Assembly: GCA_010093995.1 (NCBI GenBank)
Contig: ML992532.1
Coordinates: 1 to 58,335 of the forward strand
Source: Elsinoe ampelina
Taxonomy: Eukaryota
Reading direction: 5' to 3'
Length of the DNA: 58,335 bases
The position numbers and the translations under genes are program-made. Shown here piece after piece: positions 46,400-58,335 of the stretch. Each line of letters opens with the position of its first letter. Positions within the stretch are counted from its first letter, which is position 1. The notes beneath the pieces were generated by a model. The model was given only the letters and a program-made list of their open reading frames with translations, had not been told where the DNA came from and did no database searches.

Positions 46400-48659
46400 A
46401 TCAATATAGGTGATTAGAGTTCTAAAAGCGTACACGGGATAGTAGTATACACGGCCTAGGAAGACTTCTTATATATAGAACTCACTCTAAGACTAGATAG
46501 GTTTTAGTCTACAAAATTTGTCGTTGTATAATTTTAGAAGCAAGCCCGATAAATAGGGCTCACGGAAGAAGGTAATAGAGCTTTATAATAGGACATAAAC
46601 TCGTTAGACTATAGACTCGCTAGAGTAGTACTCTATTATAACAGGTAGCGACCTATAGAGACTTCTCCCGTAGGACTATAGTAATAATAGGCAAGAAGCT
46701 CGAGGTTGCCCTCTATAGCGATATAAATCGATAAGGCAAACTTAGGATATGTTATTTTAGCATAGTTACTTTGCTTCCTATCTACGATGTTTTCCTAGAG
46801 TGTAAAATAGTCCTAGCTTTAAGGGCATTATATTTCTTATTATCTAGCTAAACTATATATACGTAATCTTCGACATACATAAAGTAAATACCTTGTCCTA
46901 GACAAGATTAGAACATATCTACTCTTTTTAATCCTTGTTACTTAAACTCGTAAAGATATATTACTTTGTTCCTACTATTATTTTTATACTCCTCGGTCTA
47001 TTAGCTATTACTACGCTTTTAGGCAATAGATATGTCTATGTAGTACGTATGTATAAGATCTAACATTACACGTTTTCTAACGAAGTCTAGGCACTAGTAA
47101 AGTCAAAGGAGGATATAGCAATAGCTAATTATATAACTAAATATTATTAATATAAACATAGTATATTACTCTAATGTCTAATGTACCTAAAAGGTTACCT
47201 AAAGCTTATATTTCCTATTAGGAGCAATAATAAATATAGTTAACTTCTTTAGTAAAGGAAACTTCTATTGCTATTTTAAAAATAGAATTAATTCTACTAT
47301 TTAGAATAAAGAATACTATTGTAAGTAGTATAGAGATAGAACTTATAGCTACTATAATAGAGTAATATAGACATTATTCACGTAGCTAAGAGAGTATTAG
47401 TAAGCACTATACGGAGTATAGATCGAGGGTCTTACCTAATAGAATATATAGTGTTCCTTAATAAAAAAATTATCTTAGCAAAATCCGTTTCGTAAATGTC
47501 CCTTTAAGATCTAACGTAGTAATATAGTTTTTACCTTTCTATATAAAAGGTTTTCTAGCATCGTAAGGCTTCTTTCTTATTTAAAGAAAAGATTTTACTT
47601 ATAATAATAAAATAGAAAGTAAGACCTAAAGAAGAATAGTAGTATATAGGAGAGACATAGAAGTTGTTACTGTTGTAATTAAGGTTCGTAGAGAAAATAG
47701 ACATACTTCCCTAGGTATAGTATACAATTCTTCTTACACTAGTTCTATTATGCCTAAATATATTCTATCTTTTCTGTCTTTCTTCTCTCTACTTCGATTT
47801 AAATTGTTATAGCTAAATAGAGAACTAAGTAGAGTAATAGGCAACTTCTTAACCTTGTATTATAATCTTTAAAGCTATTATTAACTTAGACTATAAAATA
47901 ATAACTAAAGAGATACGTAAGCTTACTATTTAACTTAGTTACGATAATTAGTATAAAACATCGAAATAGTAGAGGATAGAATAGAAGTATAGAGAGATTA
48001 GGAGGTAGATGTATAATAGACATAGAATTTCTCTATAGATAAAGACCTAGCTACTAGTAGGTATATAATTCGTACGCACTTATTAATAGTTATATAGGGA
48101 AATAATGTTACGTACTTACCTAGCTATTGTCGATCTAGCTATTAAAGTACACGTTAACTAGCTAGAGTTTAACTATATATAATTAGAAAGGATAAACCGA
48201 AAAGATAACGTACTTTAGTACTACTACCTAAGCTAGAGTTATTATTACGTCTAGATCTATCTTTCTTCCTAATATATTCCTAAGTTACCTTTAAACCTAT
48301 TATATGCTCTTTTCCCTAGGGAAACTACCTTACTAATTTTACCTTCCGACTAAATATAAGTATAGAGGATAAGCTATCTCCTATAGAGATCTCTACGTAG
48401 TATAGGAATAAGTAGTTTAGTTAGTAAGAACAAGGTACTAGAGGATAGAAGATCTACGCTGTCTATCCTTGCCTAACTTATATCTAAGTTTCTTTATATA
48501 GGGGAAGACTATTAAGACTAATTAAGTAATTAATAAGTAATATTATAGTACTATCGGAGTTACGCTTATAAATAGAAGCTAAGCTTAAAGGACAAGATAT
48601 GCTAGACATATATATAATAGCAAATCTTCTTTACTAAGTATAGATAGCAACGTTAGTTT

Positions 48660-49311
48660 ATAGTATAGGTAAATAGTAAGGAGAGTAGGTAAAGTAGAGA
48701 GAGTAGGTAAGGTAGGGAAAGTAAGTAAGGTAAAGAGAGTAGATAAGGTAGAGAGAGTAGATAAGGTAAAGAGAGTAGGTAAGATAGAGAGAGTAGGTAA
48801 GGTAGAGAGAGTAGGTAAGGTATAGAGAGTAGGTAAGATAGAGAAAGTAGGTAAGGTAGAGAGAGTAAGTAAGGTAAAGAGAGTAGGTAAGGTAGAGTAA
48901 GTAGGTAAGGTAGAGAGAGTAAGTAAGGTAGAGAGAGTAAGTAAGGTAGAGAGAGTAAGTAAGATAGAGAGAGTAGATAAGGTAAAGAGAGTAAATAAAG
49001 TAGAGAGAGTAAGTAAAGTATAGAGAGTAAATAAGATAAAGAGAGTAAATAGAGTAAGAAAAGTAAGTAAGATAAAGAGAGTAAGTAAAGTAAAGAGAGT
49101 AAGTAAAGTAAAAAGAGTAAGTAAAGTAAAGAGAGTAAGTAAAGTAAAGAGAGTAAATAAGGTAAAGAGAGTAAGTAAAGTAAAAAAAGTAAGTAAAGTA
49201 AAAAGAGTAAGTAAAGTAAAGAGAGTAAGTAAAGTAAAGAGAGTAAATAAAGTAAAGAGAGTAAGTAAAGTAAATAGAGTAAGTAAAGTAAGTAAAGTAG
49301 ATATAATAGAG
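48660..49311. repeat. Degenerate 18-bp (2x9) purine-rich minisatellite, consensus about AGAGAGTA(G/A)GTAA(G/A)GTA
   Basis: Tandem units are visible by eye. The plus strand has no C from 48652 to 49311, and units differ mostly by G/A changes. Confidence 0.9.
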
Positions 49312-49333
49312 CTAGATAAAGAGTAGAGTAGGG

Positions 49334-49703
49334 GTAAAAAGTACATTTAGTATATAGCTACTCTAATATATATATCTAAATCGGTAGTAAATAGTAATTA
49401 TACAACAAAAACAAATCCTATCTAAACTAAATTTTTACTATATTAAATCTACCTCTTTTCTTCTAGAACATAGCAAAAATTATCTAGATCTAATATTAAT
49501 TAATTAAGATATTAGCGTTTCTAGTTAACGCTATATTCTATCTAATTCTATACTCTTATATAAACTAGGTTTATAGATAAGTAGCCTATAAGCTAGTTCT
49601 TAGAGTTAGAGTTAGAGTAAAAAGTATATTTAGTATATAGCTACTCTAATATATATATCTAAATTAGTAGTAAATAGTAATTATATAACAAAAACAAATC
49701 CTA
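49334..49703. repeat. About 87-bp direct repeat (49334-49420 and 49617-49703)
   Basis: GTAAAAAGTA(C/T)ATTTAGTATATAGC...ACAAATCCTA occurs twice at offset 283, differing by transitions. Confidence 0.85.
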
Positions 49704-50337
49704 GATACTATATATCTTAGAAGGAAAGGTATATTCTAATAGTTTTACTAGAGTAGGGTTAGGGTATTTTCCTAGATTCTAATAGAATTCCTAACCTTTA
49801 TTCTTTAGAACTTCCTAAGATTTTTTCCCTTTAAATTTTTTAGAGATTACTTATATTACTTAGGTCCTCTATAATACTTAGTATTATCTAGAATTATCAA
49901 GTATTACTCCTAGAATCTAGGTTATAGTATACTAGGACTATCCTAAAAATCTTTTAAAGTTCCTAAGAAAATATAGAGTAGAGGTCTTAGTAGCTTTACT
50001 TCTAATAGTTAGAAACTCTAGACACTATATATCTTAGGAGGAAGAGTATATTCTAATAGTTTTACTAGAGTAGGGTTAGGGTATTTTCCTAGATTCTAAT
50101 AGAATTCCTAATCTCTATTCTTTAGAACTTCTTAAGATTTTTTCCCTCTAAATTTTTTAGAAATTACTTATATTACCTAGGTCCTCTATAATACTTAGTA
50201 TTATTTAGAATTATCGAGTATTACTCCTAGAATCTAGGTTATAGTATACTAGGACTATCCTAAAAATCTTTTAAAGTTCTTAAGAAAATATAGAGTAGAA
50301 GTCTTAGTAGCTTTACTCCTAATAGTTAGGAACTCTA
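49701..50337. repeat. 317-bp tandem duplication, each copy with TAGGGTTAGGG
   Basis: Copies start at 49701 and 50018, with telomeric seeds at 49754-49764 and 50071-50081. The differences checked are C/T and G/A transitions. Confidence 0.9.
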
Positions 50338-53300
50338 AAATATCCCTATAAATTTAAAGAGGCCTAAGTAGACTAGTAGATAGACATAAAATACATATTA
50401 AAGTAGAATAAATTTCCTAGTAAATAGAAGGTCTAAGAATTATAGATAACTCTATAGTACTTAGATTATATATATAGATATTGCTCTTAGAGTTATTAGG
50501 GAAATCCTAGAGCCTATAATTCTTAATTAAATAATAGACAACTAGGATCTTTAGTAGAAATACCTACCTCCTCTCCTATCTTTATCTTTTCTAACTACCT
50601 CTTAGTATTCCCCTATTATTTTCTAGAGTCTAGGGTTCTTAGGATAGCTAGATTAATATTTAATAGCTTTTTATAATACTAGATTTAGATCTAGTAAGTA
50701 GATTATATTAGTAGGAGTTAGAATAGAATTCTTAAGAGCTTATAGTTCCGCTAGAGTATAGAGCTATAATTATAAGTTTATCTACCTAAAGGTTTAGGCT
50801 ATTATTCCTATTATATTACCTATTATTATATTACTCTAAGCAATAATAAACTTTTATAAGGAATTATTAGTAAGTATTTCTAGTTTAGCCCCTAGTAGCT
50901 AGGCATTAGTTAGTATATCTTAAGTCTCTAGGGATTATAACCTAGGCCTTTTATATACTATATTTATATACTTCTTTATTATTATATTACTCTTTGTTTT
51001 ATATGCCTAACTACCTAGTATAACTTATAGATCTTATATATCTCTTTTATTCCCTCTAGCTTTCTTTCTTTCTCTTCTTATTACCTTTATTATAGTAAGT
51101 TTACTCTATTATAGCTAGATCCTTATCTAGTCTCTTTAAGAGAGTTAAAGTAGCTAGAGATGCTACTATAGAGATTAAACAGCTTTTAATTAGCTTTAGA
51201 AAGAACTAGCTTTATAGCTTACCTATAGCCTTTATAGCCTTTATAGCTTTTATAGAGCTTTTTACTAGTAAGAGATAGATATACCTAGTAGCTCTTTATA
51301 CTAATAAGCCTAGTAGCCTTTATAGTAATATATATAGCTCTATTTAGCCTATAGATCTTATCTCTGCTACTTTAACTCTACTAAGAGGTCTTAAATAAGG
51401 ACCTTTAGTAAATGTAAGCCTTCCTAAGAACCCTAACTAACTATAACTTCTAGTTTTAACCTCCTAGCTCTCTTATAATTTTACCTTCCTTCCTAAATAA
51501 CTTTCTAAGCCTAGCACTCCTAGTAACTATTATAGCTCCTAGAGCCTCGTATACTAGGACTCCTATAACCTTCCTAGCTACTACTAGAGATAGAGTTACT
51601 AACCTAAATACTCTAAGTAAGCCCTAAGTCTCTAATATATATTATAATTTTACTAACACTTCTAGGCTATACCTAGGTTTCTATAACTCTTCCCTTTACC
51701 TAGTAGGTCTAGGCTAACCTCTAGGGACTTAATATAGCCTAGTATAATTCCCTAGATGCCTAGGTTAAACTCCTAGTTAATACTAATCTCTAAGTCTTTA
51801 CTAGGACTAGTCCTAAGTTCTAGCTTAACTAGCCTATTAACCTAAGAACTCCTAGAACAACTATAAACCTTTCTAGATCTAATACTAACTACCTAGTTTC
51901 TTTACTTGTCTATAGCGCTTCTAGGTATACTATCTACCTAGCTAGTTAGAAGTATACTTTCTATACTTAGAGAAATAGCAAATATAACTCCTATATTACT
52001 ATAACTACTCCTAATAGTACTATACTCCTAAGGGGCTCCTATACTAACTATAGCTTCTAGAATAATTACTATAGCTATAGCTTATCTAGTACGTGTTTCT
52101 AAGTTTCCTAATCGATCCTAACTAATATAAGTCCTAGACTACTAAAGAGCTTCTAGACATCTCTCTACTAACTCTACCCCTATACGTCCTAGAGCTTCTA
52201 GACCTATAAGACGCCTTAGAGGTCTCCTAACTAACAATAAGGCTACTAGGGGCTTCCTAATTAAGCTTCCTAACGACTCTAACTCTTCTAAGAACTAGCG
52301 CGCCTTAGATAATTTCCTAGCTCTCCTAGATAATATTAAAGCTTAAGTAACTACTCTAAGGGATAGAGGCTACTTAGTAGAGTAGGACAAGCTTCTAGAT
52401 CTTACTAAGTCTAGACTTATCTTTAATAAGGCTTAGGGCTAGTTAGAATTATATATAGCCTTAGGGTAACTTTAAGAAATATTAGAATAGAGTAGCTAGC
52501 TCTCTTAGTTTTCTTAAGTATAGAGTAAGTAAGTAGCTTTTCTAGGGTTTAGATAGCTTAGTCTAAGTGTTCTAGATGTTATAATAGGCTAGTAAGCTCC
52601 TAGATATTATAACTCTAGTTCTAAATTAGAAATCTTTACTAATAGTCTATTAAATTTCCTAGTATTTCTATAATATATAAGTAATATAGTGTCTTTCTAA
52701 TATGCCTAAACCTTCTAACCTTAGGTTAGAATTCTAAGCTTAGCTAAGAGTTAGAGCAATCTTAGAGTCTTTCTATAATTTATACCTAATATAATATTCT
52801 CCTAATTTACCTAGACTTACTTACCTTAGGATTTTAAGCTAAGTATTTCTAACTATTAGAGTAGTTGCCCTATACTACTAGAGTATCCTAATCTACCTAA
52901 GCCTACTATATATAGGGGCCTTATTATTAGCTAATATAAGTGTAGTTACTATTTTACTTAATTTTATCTAATTAGCAAAAATTTCTCTAGTTAAGCTATC
53001 CTTATGTTCTTAGTTAAGTATAAAGCCTACTCTAACTCTAAAAAACTTAGACTATATTTTTTTAATTTATATCTAGTATAGTAGCTTTCTAATTTGTCTA
53101 GGCCTACTAACCTTAGGGCTTAAACCCTAAGTCCTCTATGTCTTAGTCTACTAAACATCTAAGATCTACTATCTCTTAGAACCTTAGAAGAGTAGTTTAG
53201 AGCTTTAGAGGTTCTCTAATAAAGGTTAAGTCTCTATATAGAATACTAAGCTTTATATAAAAGGTACTACTATTTAATACTTCCTAGATCTATTTAGTTT

Positions 53301-53376
53301 ACTTCTATCTACTATAGTATTCTAGTAAGAACTATAGGTCTCCCTTTAGGTTTTCTATTCTTACCTAGTAAAAGGA

Positions 53377-56300
53377 ATATCCTTTAAGTACTTCTAGTAG
53401 TTTAAAGTAATTATCTATATAGATTACAAGTTTACTATAATCCTTAATTAGGTTACTTTCTACCTAAAGAAGTATTACTCTTCCCTAGTAAAGGATAGAT
53501 AGTAGAACATTATTAGCATAGTAAAAGATATACCAAATTTAGTAAGGAAGAAATTAGATATCTAGTACCTCTACCCTATAGTAGAAGTAATTCTAGAACT
53601 ACCTATTTAAGGTCTAGGCTTTAAGTATATCTATAGAGATACTTAGAAAAGATAGTATAGCTATATTACCTAGTATATTAAGGTTATATAATAGTACTAT
53701 AGCTAGAAGTATAACTAGAAGAGTAATAAGTCTAGGGGAGAGAGTAAGGCTTAGAGAGTAAGACTAAGGAGTAATAAGATATAGGTTAGTAGTATCTAGA
53801 GCTAGAAGTTCTTTTAGGATAAAGCCTAGTAAAAGTCTTTTTAGGTTTAAGTCCTAGATATAGAAGTAGTATAGGAAAGACCTAAGGATAGAGTTAATAT
53901 ATAGTTAAGAATCTATTAGGATACTCTAAGTAGAAGAAACAACTAGAAGGTTATTTAAGGTCTAGGAAATAGATATAAAGTTAATCCCTAGCTAGAAATA
54001 ATAGGTTAGATCTAGTATCTTATAGAATTTAAGTAGCTCTAGGTCCTATAGGCTATTACTCCCCCTAGTTAGGATTCTATCTATTAGCTATATTAGCTCC
54101 CTAGAGCTAGAACATCCTATAGTTATAGGATAAAGTATAGAGTATACCTAATAATAGAGGAATAAGTAGAAGCTTAAGGACAAGTATAGGCTAAGAGAAA
54201 TAGTCGCTTTAGGCACTTTACTAATTAGGAAGTATAAGAGAGAGATACTAGGCTACTAAGAGCTAGCGAGGCAACTAGCATACTTATTAGACTCTATATA
54301 AAGACTACTAAGTAGTCTATAGTAGGAAATATAGTTCTAGAGTTTATTAAAAGACTAGAGGTTAGCGGAAGTAAGGACTAGTAACTATTCTATTCTAAGC
54401 ATAAAGTTAGTACTATTAGAAACTATACTAATGTTTAGGTAAAGCTACTAAGGTTTATCTAGAGGACCTAGGACCTAGCTAAGGGAGATAGACTAGAATA
54501 TAAGCTACTAACTATATAGAGAATATTCCTAATAAATGTTATAGACTTAGTAAGATAAGATAATAGAGATAATAACATTAGAAGCTAACTAGTTAAGAGT
54601 CTTAGGCAATTCTAGCTATCTATATTCTAGTATAAGCTTAGTAATAATTATTATAAAAGTGCTCTAGTTAGTAGACTTACTATTCTTAGCTTAAACACTA
54701 AAGATAGAAGCTAGGCTAGACCTAAGAACTTTAGCTCTACTATTATAGCTCTAGTAACTATTAGTAAGGTACTAGTAGTTAGATAAGTATAGAAGTAGAG
54801 GGAAGATAAGATAGATAACCTAGTTAAAGCTAAGGAGCTTAATAGGTCTAAGGCTAAGGAGATAGTACTAAAAATTCTTATAAGAGTATAGGAGACAGTC
54901 TAGAAGTTTATAGCTATTACTAGCTTCTATAGGCGACTAAATATAATAGACAGGCTAGTTAGGATACTTAAGTATAGTAGGGAAGTTAGGAACACTACTA
55001 AGAGTCTAGCTAGAATTACCTAGGAAGGTAAAGTAATTATAGTTAATAAGGTTAAGTTCTTTATACCTAACCTAAAGATAACTATTTATAGGTTACTAGT
55101 AACCTACTAGAGGCGTATAAGAATTAACTTAATACGTTTAGGAGAGAAAGATAAAAAAAGATAAGAACTACTATCTCTAGAGCTTAGAAACCTATAGGAC
55201 TCTCTAGAAGAAATAAGAGAAGGCTTTAGCTTTCTTACTCTCTAGAGTAATTAATAGTCTATAGATAGGTTATTCTAGCTAGCTTAGAGGCTACTAAGGT
55301 ATATTAGTAGACCTTAAGGTAGTAAAGGCTTTCTCCTAAACTAGAATATAGTTAAGAAATAGGTCTCTTAGCTTAGGAAATTTAAGGAAGAACTATTTAT
55401 CCTAGTATATCTTACTAGAGGCGCTTCTACTAGAGGCACGGAGATAGTTAGTATTAAGTGCTAGAATAGCTCTAATAGGAGAATAGGTAGGGGAATATTT
55501 CTAGATAGAGGCCTAGTTAGCTTTATATTATCCTATTATAAGGTATTTAGGATTAAAAGTAAAGTAAGAATAGTATATAGATATATCTCTTAGAAAGTTA
55601 GCTAGTTAGTAGTATATTATCTCTAGCTTATAAGACCTTTTAGTAGGTAGCTAGATAGCTTCTAGAGGGGTAACTATAAGGATAGTAGGTATCTCTAGGA
55701 GCTAGAACCTAAGGCTAAGTAAAGTAATAAAGAGGTAGAAGATTATAGCTTTAGGTCTAATAGAGGAGAACTTATAGATATTACTAGTTAGGATAAAGAG
55801 GTAAGAGAGTTAGTAGAGACCTTACTACTAGAACTACTAGCTAGATAGCCTAAGAACCTTAATAGATTCTAGAGTACTAATAGGAGAAGAAGAGTACTTA
55901 GTAGGGAGACTTCTAGTTGTATAGGGGCTAGGATTACTATAGTATCCTAAAGGTAGATCTACTCTACTATCTAGAGGAACTATACTAGAGATATATCTAC
56001 TAGGGCTATCCTAGATAATCTATTTACCTATAAAGAGGAGGCTTAGGTAAAGGGCTCGATAGGAAAGAGTAAAGAACTATCCCTAAATATTAAGGAAGAG
56101 TAGTTAGGCTATAGTAAGTAGATAGAAGAGTTAGTATATAGAATTCTCTACTCTAAGTCTCCTAATAGTACTCTATTAAAAAGGGAAGACTTTAGGAAGG
56201 TTAGTATAGATTAGTATAAGTTCCTAAGCTTCTCTTCTATACTAGAAGATTCTATTAAAGGCTCTAAGGCTAGGAGACAAGAAGAACTTTAGCTTAAGGT

Positions 56301-58240
56301 AGACTAGTTCCTTCGCTAGAAGAAGATTAAGACTATCTAGCTTACCTAGGCACTATATTAACTCTATAGGCTAGGTGCTATATTCCGGGGCCTATAGAAG
56401 AAGGCCCTAAAGGCTATTATTAAGGGAGAGTAAAGGCTTATAGTAATTATAGATATAGGAAAGAGAAAGAGCTTATTATTTATACTACTAGTAAAAATAG
56501 TCCCTAGAGGCCTAATAGTAGTTATTATTCCCCTTATCTCCCTAAAGGATAATCTAAAGAGAAGGTATAATTAGTCTAGTATTAGGAGTACTAAATAGTC
56601 TAGTAAGAAGTATACCTTCTAGGTAGATATTATCTTTATTGTCCTAGAATTAGCTATTACTAAGAAATTCTAGAGGTTCTTAAAGTCTAGAAAGCTTATA
56701 GGTAGAGTAGATAGAATTATTCTTAATAAGTGTTATATACTCCTAGACTCCTTTATAGGCTAGAGACTAAAGATACTAGAGCTAGTAAGCATAGTAGATA
56801 AGGGGATATAGCTAATCTTCCTTATAGCTATAATAAAGCTAAAGGATAAACCTAACTTACTTACTATTATAAATCTTAGAGAGAAAGATCTAAGAATTAT
56901 AAGGGAAGAGATAAGTAGAAAGAACCTAGAGTATAGAGTATTAAAGTATAATAGATAAGATAAAGTAATAGAAGTTAGAAGAGTAGTTAAGTAGAAGCTA
57001 AGAGAGTATAAGTAAGAGAAGATTATTATCTATATTAGGGACATTAGGTAGAGTAACCTAATAGCTAATAACCTTAGAGCTAAGGTCTATAATACTTAGA
57101 TTAGGTTAGAGAAAGTTAAGAGAAGAGTACTAAAGAGACTTTAAGAAGGGAAAGAGAAAGTATAAGTCGCTAGTAATACTCTAGGTATTAGGCTTAACAT
57201 ACCTAATATTAGAGTAGTTATTTATATATATATAAGGAGTAAGATAAGGAACTATATCTAGGAAAGTAGTAGAGTAGATAGGGATAGCTAGAAAAGTAAG
57301 GCTATTATTATAGAAGCTTTAGTAGGGTATAAGAGAGATAGGATTTAACTAGGAAGGAGCTATATAGAGGCTAAGATAAAGAAGTACCTTAGTAGAGACT
57401 CCTATAGGCAAAAGGTTATTAATAGAGAAATAGATAGTAGAGGCGATAGACTAGAGTATAAGATTAAAGAGCTAAGGTATAATATATATTAGAGAGTATT
57501 AGTAGGCCCTAAGAGAAGGAGAATTATAGTATAGAATTCTAGGGACTACTTAAGTCTAGGCTAGCTTTAGGAACATCGGGAGAAAGTTATCTAGAGTAGG
57601 GAGAGTTTATATAGCATATAAGAAGTATAGAACTTAGCGGATATAGAGAGAAAGGAGTAGAAACTATCTAGGAAGATTATAGAGTTATAGAGGTAAGAGG
57701 TAGCTCTTAGGGAAAGAGAGGAAGCCTTAGGGATTATTAGTATAGCTTAGAAGAATATTAAAATATTAGAAGAGAAGCTTAAGAATTAGCTAGAGTCCCC
57801 TAGGTATTTTACTCCTAAGCTAGCTATCTCTATAGAAGAAAGCGATGCTAATAGTATATAGAATAGAAGTCTAAAATTAGGTAAGAGGCCTATAGTAATT
57901 ATAAATAGAGTTAGGCTAGACAGTAATAAGAATAACTTAAGTAATAAGTTTAAGAGTTAGGTAAGTATATCTAAGAATCTACTAAACATAATAGAAACCC
58001 TAGAGTACTAGGATTAGGTTTAGTAGAGACATAAGTATATTTTTAAGGAGAGAAAGAGAATTAAGAGGAGACTAGAGAGTAGAGAGGTTATAGAGTAGCT
58101 AGAGATAAAGCTAAGAGCCTAGAGATCTAGCTACCTATTCTATAAGGTTAAAGGCAGGTATAAGTCTTAGAATTATATATAGCCTTTATATAGTAGAATA
58201 TCTTAGGTAGAGAGAGCTAAGTTCTAGCTTAGTATTAAAG
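53377..58240 (+). pseudogene. RIP-inactivated telomere-linked RecQ helicase (TLH) gene: DUF3505-like Zn region, central recombinase-like region, RecQ core, Zn/C-terminal region
   Basis: All motifs lie in frame +1 and are recoverable by reversing RIP transitions: FRGL(Q) at about 56383, motif I (T)GK(G)KSLLF at about 56455, VVIIPLISL at about 56518, DECH as AAT AAG TGT TAT at 56725, LTAT at about 56821, motif V at about 57166-57225, (Q)ES(G)R(A)(G)RD at about 57259, and Cys>Tyr relics of the RecQ Zn site at about 57400-57490. The start position is approximate. Confidence 0.85.
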
Positions 58241-58335
58241 TAGGGTTAGGGTTAGGGTTAGGGTTAGGGTTAGGGTTAGGGTTAGGGTTAGGGTTAGGGT
58301 TAGGGTTAGGGTTAGGGTTAGGGTTAGGGTTAGGG
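58241..58335 (+). repeat. Telomere, TAGGG(TTAGGG)15
   Basis: Perfect TTAGGG array at the window end, with the G-rich strand oriented 5'->3' toward the end. Confidence 0.98.

Follow-up and report, generated by a model that had tools for sequence, protein, structure and literature searches.

A predicted tyrosine recombinase-like domain in telomere-linked RecQ helicases, traced from a decayed gene at a chromosome end of Elsinoe ampelina

The 58,335-nucleotide stretch of Elsinoe ampelina DNA analyzed here (GenBank assembly GCA_010093995.1, contig ML992532.1, positions 1 to 58,335 of the forward strand; hereinafter the window) terminates in telomere repeats, and next to these lie the remains of a telomere-linked RecQ helicase (TLH) gene that was destroyed by repeat-induced point mutation (RIP). 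The locus raises the question of what the TLH proteins do and, in particular, what the conserved region upstream of their helicase core, the TLH domain, contributes. The original prediction held that the segment 55381-56145 encodes, once the RIP changes are reverted, an ordered R...K...HxxR...H...Y signature of the tyrosine recombinases (YRs), so that the TLH protein might be a recombinase-helicase fusion. Conservation across homologs and structure prediction, taken together, suggest that the TLH domain is, with good probability, a member of the tyrosine recombinase/type IB topoisomerase superfamily that has kept the full catalytic set and is located between the zinc fingers and the RecQ core.

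With respect to the motifs themselves, the segment 55381-56145 corresponds to the catalytic core within the fossil of the TLH domain (Table 1), and its reverted reading can be compared with two short, un-RIPed near relatives, P0048 and P0037, that are 67-68% identical to the fossil translated with X at the stops. The un-mutated text is HLTGGAPARGTEIVSIKCQN in P0048, and SWRQVYPAIQR and QSGHSKWMEELVYG in P0037. The de-RIPed motifs, which in the fossil share the frame of the RecQ core, are found in these relatives almost letter for letter, and the individual reversions that had been proposed for the fossil, namely G, P, A, W, Q, and H, are correct. Likewise, the arginine near 55432, the lysine near 55540, the VSxRxIY stretch at about 55945-55962, and the LGxS...LVY stretch at 56101-56142 are all located where they had been placed. 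In the fossil, the context of Arg211 is LTRGASTRGTEI (TRGASTRGTEI), and the codons that flank Arg384, at the W and Q positions, are now TAA and TAG stops. The context of the predicted third catalytic position, that of the histidine, is LGYSK in the fossil vs. QSGHSK in P0037 and AGHSR in P0002, an intact relative of 1780 amino acids; the TAT codon of the fossil Tyr437 derives from CAT through a RIP-type C-to-T change.

Support for a catalytic role of these residues comes from their conservation. A HMMER search of 1.84 billion representative proteins yielded 3133 matches at E<=1e-3, of which 824 have E<=1e-10 and 173 have E<=1e-30. Among 185 proteins that were gathered, 141 match residues 671-1010 of P0002, and the 107 that span both halves of this region were aligned with MAFFT; these homologs represent clusters with a mutual identity of no more than about 50%. 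Only six columns of the alignment are fully invariant (107/107): Arg702, Glu705, Arg721, Lys738, Pro770, and Arg886 in P0002 numbering. Four of these six are the predicted box I arginine (Arg-I, Arg702) with its accompanying Glu705, the predicted catalytic lysine (Lys738), and the predicted second arginine (Arg-II, Arg886). The histidine (His939) is retained in 106 and the tyrosine (Tyr948) in 105 of the 107 homologs, and the distance between these two is exactly 9 in 104 of them. The spacing from Arg-I to Lys is confined to 33-36 residues, whereas an acidic insertion makes that from Lys to Arg-II vary between 76 and 182 residues. Arg-II is preceded by W or Y in 104 homologs and followed by H in 62 and by Q in 25. 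The same residues are invariant in four further alignments, A1 (109 sequences), A2 (68), A3 (50, including a protein without a helicase, P0036), and A4 (34). Thus, the conservation of the proposed catalytic residues, on which the recombinase hypothesis could have failed, is borne out for Arg-I, Lys, Arg-II, His, and Tyr alike. Several residues outside the canonical set are invariant or nearly so as well, namely Asn713 after box I, Arg721 before the first strand, and Arg751 and Pro770 in and around the K-x-I-H-R-Y-x-P (Arg, Pro) and L-P-F (Pro) stretches.

The consensus of the TLH domain, TGGxPARxTEL ... YHKGYxxSxxxKxIHRYLP ... WRHIAIAI ... GHxxxxAxxxY, to which corresponds the TLH text TGGAPARGTEI..YHKGY..K.IHRYVP..WRHIYPAI..GHGRYIEEKLY, can be read side by side with that of Escherichia coli XerD, TGLRVSEL ... 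GKGNKERLVPL ... HVLRHAFAT ... GHSDLSTTQIY. The RxxE spacing is common to the TLH domain, XerD (TGLRVSEL), and XerC; the TLH lysine occupies the place where XerD has GKGNKERLVPL; and the His-to-Tyr spacing of 9 equals that in XerD (HSDLSTTQIY) and XerC (HANLSTTQIY). More generally, the features shared with Xer, Cre, and lambda Int (PF00589) are the predicted catalytic fold, RxxE, a lysine after the second strand, Arg-II followed by His, and His-x8-Tyr. The TLH domain differs from these enzymes in the longer distance from Arg-I to Lys (24 residues in XerD), in the variable acidic insertion between Lys and Arg-II, in an additional three-stranded sheet and long helix at its N-terminus, and in the fusion to a RecQ helicase; moreover, no similarity between the two was detected at the level of sequence profiles. 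As a separate observation, the TLH stretch K-x-I-H-R-Y-L-P resembles the K-E-R-L-V-P-L strand of XerD.

Structure prediction points in the same direction. AlphaFold2 models were built for P0110 (579 amino acids, lacking the helicase part; 68-sequence alignment) and, independently, for the domain alone (residues 143-553 of P0110, 411 amino acids; 34 sequences). The mean predicted local distance difference test (pLDDT) score and the predicted template modeling (pTM) score were 87.7 and 0.85 for the former, and 86.3 and 0.87 for the latter. In the domain model, Arg-I opens a short helix that comes after a long helix, the lysine follows the second strand of a three-stranded sheet, in the turn between strands 185-192 and 203-209, Arg-II lies within a helix, and the tyrosine is at the end of a short helix. 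This succession of helix start, turn, helix, and short helix is the layout of the tyrosine recombinases and would be consistent with residues that meet in a single catalytic pocket.

Both models were compared, using VIA-align, with all 48,161 representative solved chains, independently of Foldseek. The best match of the full model is the archaeal Xer 4a8e (Z 10.4; root mean square deviation, rmsd, 3.6 A over 175 residues), and the first 14 rows consist solely of Xer, Cre, phage and transposon integrases, and type IB topoisomerases; the first unrelated row (Z 6.3) falls on the N-terminal helices. For the domain model, 4a8e is again the best match (Z 10.3, rmsd 3.5 A, 172 residues), and the first 27 rows (Z 10.3-5.0) comprise 17 recombinases or integrases, 6 topoisomerases, 3 Ndc10 entries, and SroF, followed by MrpR (Z 4.7), an entry containing QRICH1 (Z 4.6), and then spectrin (Z 4.6), the first clearly unrelated chain. 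Xer, Cre, and the phage integrases score between 10.3 and 8.0, with Cre at 8.5 and XerD at 8.0. The six topoisomerases, all within the top 20, are the bacterial enzyme 3m4a (Z 7.8) and those of Leishmania (7.1), variola (7.0), and human (6.1), followed by 6z01 (5.8) and vaccinia (5.6). Foldseek also places Xer and Cre chains first for both models. Thus, a recombinase fold was predicted in two models, with recombinases ranked first, in a comparison that could have spoken against the hypothesis. Tyrosine recombinases have a core-binding domain ahead of the catalytic domain; the helical N-terminal portion of P0110 (residues 1-145) partly aligns with that region of XerH, IntI, Tn1549 Int, and lambda Int, but at an rmsd of 5.7-7.6 A, and when compared by itself it resembles numerous unrelated helical bundles at Z 5-6. 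In a protein language-model atlas, the scores of which serve as leads only, the nearest neighbors of the TLH domain are solely unnamed fungal clusters (score 0.97), and the nearest named clusters are Phage_integrase, NDC10_II, and Integrase_2 (0.83-0.84).

The fusion to the helicase is evident in the intact relatives, in which N-terminal zinc fingers, the TLH domain, the RecQ core, and a C-terminal Cys-rich module are combined in one polypeptide; among 50 proteins with the TLH domain, Pfam detects DEAD in 45 and Helicase_C in 32. At the level of fold and motifs, then, the recombinase-helicase fusion suggested by the decayed window copy is supported, with the recombinase-like part upstream of RecQ and the DEAD and Helicase_C domains on the same polypeptides. 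A divergent protein of Botrytis aclada (P0036, 916 amino acids, encoded on a 2.4-Mb contig) contains the R..E..K..R..H-x8-Y domain without a helicase; therefore, the recombinase-like module also exists on its own. In a profile search for stand-alone forms of 204-767 amino acids, all 68 matches were pieces of TLH proteins, and none had a Pfam domain over the region.

Several observations weigh against this assignment. No sequence-based comparison detected a relationship to known recombinases. Pfam searches with 5 intact proteins at E<=1, and with 50 proteins at E<=10 (the 25 families listed of 51), returned no Phage_integrase, DUF3435, DUF3504, or topoisomerase; a 34-sequence profile of the domain, compared with 177,635 PDB sequences at E<=10, gave 7 weak, unrelated matches and no recombinase; and hhalign comparison of the domain alignment with 13 tyrosine recombinases of E. 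coli K-12 gave a probability of 0.1, the sole aligned stretch being an upstream TLH helix paired with the box I region of XerD. The evidence of fold consists of AlphaFold2 predictions; the best Foldseek E-values are 0.44 and 0.21 (probability about 0.5), none reaching E<=1e-3; and, according to the VIA-align guidance, best Z-scores of 7-8 are typical even without a true match, so that a Z-score of 10 is only moderately above background. Furthermore, the proposed signature holds in part: R, K, R, H, and Y are conserved in order, but the "HxxR" box lacks its histidine, in contrast to Xer, Cre, and lambda Int. Three residues upstream of Arg-II, S, Q, and A predominate (S in 46 homologs, Q in 18, A in 17, R in 6, M in 4, L in 4, and others in the rest). 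Finally, Ndc10 and similar proteins with a recombinase fold are non-catalytic DNA binders, and the papers that were searched yielded no data on tyrosine-dependent cleavage by, or any other enzymatic activity of, a TLH protein.

These points bear differently on three alternative explanations. It is conceivable that the TLH domain is a fold specific to its family, in which case both the R/K/R/H/Y pattern and the structural matches would arise from a helical arrangement of a common kind. The uniformly negative profile tests, the insignificant Foldseek E-values, and the frequency of middling VIA-align Z-scores are all compatible with such a coincidence, which we nevertheless consider very improbable, given that two independently built models produce the same ranking, that, out of 48,161 chains, the top 27 for the domain model and the top 14 for the full model all come from a single superfamily, and that four of the six invariant columns, together with His and Tyr, follow the order and the local contexts of the superfamily, including the exact His-x8-Tyr. 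If the domain does derive from a recombinase, it could have become a non-catalytic module, as in Ndc10, that binds DNA or acts as a scaffold placing RecQ on subtelomeric DNA, its conserved residues being required for binding only. Consistent with such a role are the Ndc10 entries among the structural matches (Z 5.4-5.6), the presence there of MrpR and of the entry with QRICH1, both of which we take to be recombinase-fold proteins, the NDC10_II cluster among the nearest named language-model neighbors, the missing HxxR histidine, and the lack of enzymatic data in the literature searched. However, the known non-catalytic derivatives of recombinases have lost these catalytic residues, whereas in the TLH family both arginines, the lysine, and the glutamate are invariant, and the tyrosine, the histidine, and the spacing between them nearly so; moreover, the best structural matches are the active Xer and Cre enzymes rather than Ndc10. 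Because the nucleophile and the activating residues are near-invariant across clusters of such low mutual identity (about 50% at most), catalysis is favored over mere DNA binding; the loss of activity is accordingly an unlikely outcome, and the TLH domain of the intact relatives is, judging from its sequence conservation, most likely catalytically competent.

More difficult to separate from a recombinase is a type IB topoisomerase-like swivel that would relax the torsion generated by the fused RecQ motor, without any site-specific recombination or mobile element. The association of helicases with topoisomerases has precedents in reverse gyrase and in the RecQ-Top3 pairs, and the Arg-Lys-Arg-His-Tyr set is the pentad of the type IB topoisomerases. 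The TLH domain shares with the poxvirus, bacterial, and nuclear (Top1) enzymes the superfamily fold (Z 7.8-5.6) and exactly this set without the additional HxxR histidine, and topoisomerases account for six of the top 20 structural matches. Conversely, the Z-scores of Xer, Cre, and the phage integrases exceed those of every topoisomerase, a small gap that is not decisive; the TLH domain is similar to XerD and XerC in its RxxE box and its [W/Y]-R-H-x-x-x-A-I helix; and no Pfam topoisomerase family is among the matches listed. Thus, the pentad without the HxxR histidine fits both types of enzyme, and the structural ranking slightly favors Xer/Cre; the swivel is a serious possibility, albeit one that we deem rather less than probable.

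Among fungal systems, the Cryptons, with their DUF3504 derivatives, and the DUF3435 Captains of the Starships are likewise multi-copy, and they encode recombinases with the chemistry that the original prediction had proposed. Unlike these, the TLH proteins have no DUF3435 or DUF3504 match in the Pfam searches described above. The only possibly Crypton-derived structure among the matches is the QRICH1-containing 9hjt (Z 4.6), in a comparison that included no solved Captain structure. We know of no Crypton or Captain element with a fused RecQ helicase. Protelomerases (TelK, TelA, and ResT) belong to the same superfamily as the predicted TLH fold and share with TLH the association with telomeres; however, they are poor structural matches (TelK at Z 4.5 and TelA at Z 4.1, vs. 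10.3 for Xer; ResT at a Foldseek E of 5), and the chromosome end in the window carries ordinary TTAGGG repeats rather than a hairpin, so that a protelomerase reading was set aside. Thus, the comparison with Crypton-derived, Starship, and protelomerase structures, which the original prediction had singled out, revealed no special closeness to any of them, and a particular link to Cryptons or Starship captains is supported by none of the tests.

As for the mechanism of a catalytically active TLH domain, the two arginines, the lysine, and the histidine would activate a DNA phosphodiester for attack by the tyrosine, with formation of a 3'-phosphotyrosyl link and a free 5'-OH. The cleaved strand might then be rejoined either to itself, in a topoisomerase-like swivel, or to a partner strand, as in a recombinase or a Holliday-junction resolvase, while the fused RecQ motor would unwind or branch-migrate the joint. 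An enzyme of this kind might transfer the subtelomeric TLH block from one chromosome end to another by copying or exchange. The roles thus left for the tyrosine would be resealing of the same strand, strand exchange or junction resolution, and movement of an element. A covalent DNA-cleaving domain of the recombinase/topoisomerase IB type fused to RecQ would, if the prediction is correct, represent a new enzyme architecture; it would offer a mechanism for the spread of TLH genes among chromosome ends and possibly explain how recombination rebuilds chromosome ends after a failure of telomerase. Either as a recombinase or as a type IB topoisomerase, the function of TLH would become testable through a single Tyr-to-Phe change.

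A more far-reaching possibility, which we raise tentatively and deem rather less than probable, is that TLH genes are the engines of hitherto unrecognized selfish elements that target chromosome ends. Combining a cleavage-rejoining domain of the YR/topoisomerase IB type and a RecQ motor in one protein, such elements would move or copy their own subtelomeric block between telomeres and, occasionally, between species; the resulting "YR-helicase" would be a counterpart of the Rep-helicase of Helitrons. Several hints fit this notion without proving it: the family is large and multi-copy; the window copy has been subject to RIP, which acts on repeated DNA; in a preprint on Botrytis, 14 TLH copies are reported in one strain and none in two others; and one cluster of TLH proteins has members labeled as coming from different fungal classes. 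The latter cluster, defined at 90% identity, is that of P0003, a protein with all the predicted residues, and includes a Metarhizium album protein named "RecQ helicase TLH3". Its members, which differ much in length, are labeled as coming from Hortaea werneckii, Cladosporium halotolerans, and Metarhizium album, presumably representatives of different classes; such a mixture would suggest horizontal transfer, or else contamination or mislabeling. A search for a related DNA locus with a single protein as the query returned one 3.4-kb contig that has no telomere repeats on it.

The TLH family itself is already known, and it is the recombinase-like nature of the TLH domain that appears to be new. 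The domain was reportedly defined by Rehmeyer and colleagues in Current Genetics in 2009. In two preprints, one on Fusarium (2024) and one on Botrytis, TLH proteins are described as having N-terminal C2H2-type fingers, a conserved domain of about 250 amino acids upstream of the helicase, RecQ motifs, and telomere adjacency, an architecture that the window fossil and its relatives share. Earlier work quoted in the literature records TLH genes in Ustilago, Magnaporthe, fission yeast, and Metarhizium, and they are also known from a choanoflagellate. Both preprints treat the TLH domain as particular to this family and its function as undetermined, and the words "recombinase" and "integrase" occur 0 times in the one on Fusarium. 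A literature search covering full texts, titles, and abstracts, with most subscription journals and the domain-defining paper outside its reach, found no paper that links the TLH domain to a tyrosine recombinase or integrase, so that an earlier statement to this effect is possible.

Turning to the window copy itself, the object is an ordinary RIPed subtelomeric TLH pseudogene, the features of which are collected in Table 1.

Table 1. Features of the TLH pseudogene and the adjoining chromosome end in the window
Feature	Coordinates	Strand	Basis or remarks
RIP-destroyed TLH (telomere-linked RecQ helicase) pseudogene	53401..58218	+	tblastn, BLASTP vs. P0002, RIP indices
OrsD-type (C2H2-like) zinc-finger remains	53401..53720	+	approximate limits, by colinearity with P0002 alone
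Fossil TLH domain (predicted tyrosine recombinase/topoisomerase IB fold)	54995..56240	+	approximate limits; equivalent to P0110 143-553 and P0002 552-980
Box I, Arg211 and Glu214 of RGTE	55432..55443	+	Arg codon 55432-55434, Glu codon 55441-55443; both intact in fossil
Lys247, predicted catalytic lysine	55540..55542	+	SYYK in fossil; Y-H-K in relatives
Arg384, predicted Arg-II	55951..55953	+	VSxRxIY in fossil; [W/Y]-R-[H/Q] in relatives
Predicted His-III position, Tyr437 in fossil	56110..56112	+	TAT; His in relatives
Tyr446, predicted nucleophilic tyrosine	56137..56139	+	LVY; nine residues past the His position
RecQ-type helicase core	56392..57282	+	DEAD/DEAH about 56392-56845; Helicase_C 56998-57282
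Terminal telomere repeat tract	58241..58335	+	15.8 perfect TTAGGG copies, G-rich strand 5' to 3' toward window end

Over 53000-58220, the plus-strand frame with coordinate = 1 mod 3 contains 150 stops, vs. 231 and 284 in the other two, and from about 54.8 kb onward it has the lowest stop count. Translation of this frame over 54802-58218, with X at its 80 stops, gives the fossil protein P0001, which is 38% identical to P0002 over 941 columns in BLASTP, and tblastn aligns residues 21-1475 of P0002 colinearly with 53401-57735 of the window in one high-scoring segment pair and a single frame. By colinearity with P0002, the fossil has the RecQ core, the TLH domain upstream of it, and the N-terminal finger region that, together with its telomere adjacency, characterize the TLH family. 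The DEAD (1033-1183) and Helicase_C (1240-1329) domains that Pfam recognizes in P0002 align to the fossil, in which the sole Pfam match is Helicase_C (residues 733-827, E 3.8e-4, 21.1 bits, below the cut-off of 23.5). The finger region corresponds to residues of P0002 within an OrsD match (PF12013, residues 14-126, E 3.9e-17), and no Pfam match was obtained in the fossil OrsD region itself.

The full fossil frame, 1606 codons from 53401 to 58218, contains 109 TAG, 26 TAA, and 0 TGA codons and no frameshift. TAG and TAA are the products expected of C-to-T and G-to-A changes at CpA/TpG; since these are the only stops, and a single frame persists, the gene was killed by transitions alone and not by indels. 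The base composition bears the same imprint of RIP: over 53401-58230, TpA/ApT is 2.14, (CpA+TpG)/(ApC+GpT) is 0.09, and the GC content is 0.318, vs. index values of 0.56 and 1.30, respectively, in the first 46 kb of the window. With its 135 stops, its catalytic histidine changed to tyrosine, and its C-terminus cut by the telomere, the window copy is dead.

The perfect TTAGGG repeats terminate the window, and the end of the window is therefore the end of a chromosome; within the tract, TTAGGGTTAGGG was matched 14 times, with 0 matches in 100 shuffles. The fossil reading frame ends 23 bases before the tract, which starts at 58241. In its tail, residues 1076-1118 of the fossil pair weakly with residues 1577-1619 of P0002 in BLASTP, and because of this weak match, about 140 C-terminal amino acids relative to P0002, including its Cys-rich end, would seem to be absent at the start of the telomere. 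The end of the frame, near 58219-58245, looks like the outcome of healing by telomere addition inside the gene or of terminal erosion.

The pseudogene is part of a larger AT-rich region that takes up the final 12 kb of the window, where the GC content drops to 0.25-0.33 (past about 47 kb) vs. about 0.44-0.59 upstream. A further RIPed, AT-rich block precedes the TLH fossil, at 46500-53400 (TpA/ApT 2.01, (CpA+TpG)/(ApC+GpT) 0.17); a Pfam search of its six frames, with X at stops, detected no family at E<=0.1. This block contains an 18-bp minisatellite at 48676-49291 (34 copies, 87% match, consensus GTAAAGAGAGTAAGTAAG) with a strong purine skew, owing to which all three minus-strand frames are free of stops there. 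Inside the same RIPed block, at 49701-50337, a 317-bp unit is present in two tandem copies with a 95% match; its consensus includes the telomere-like GGGTTAGGG, and the unit is possibly a relic of an older chromosome end.

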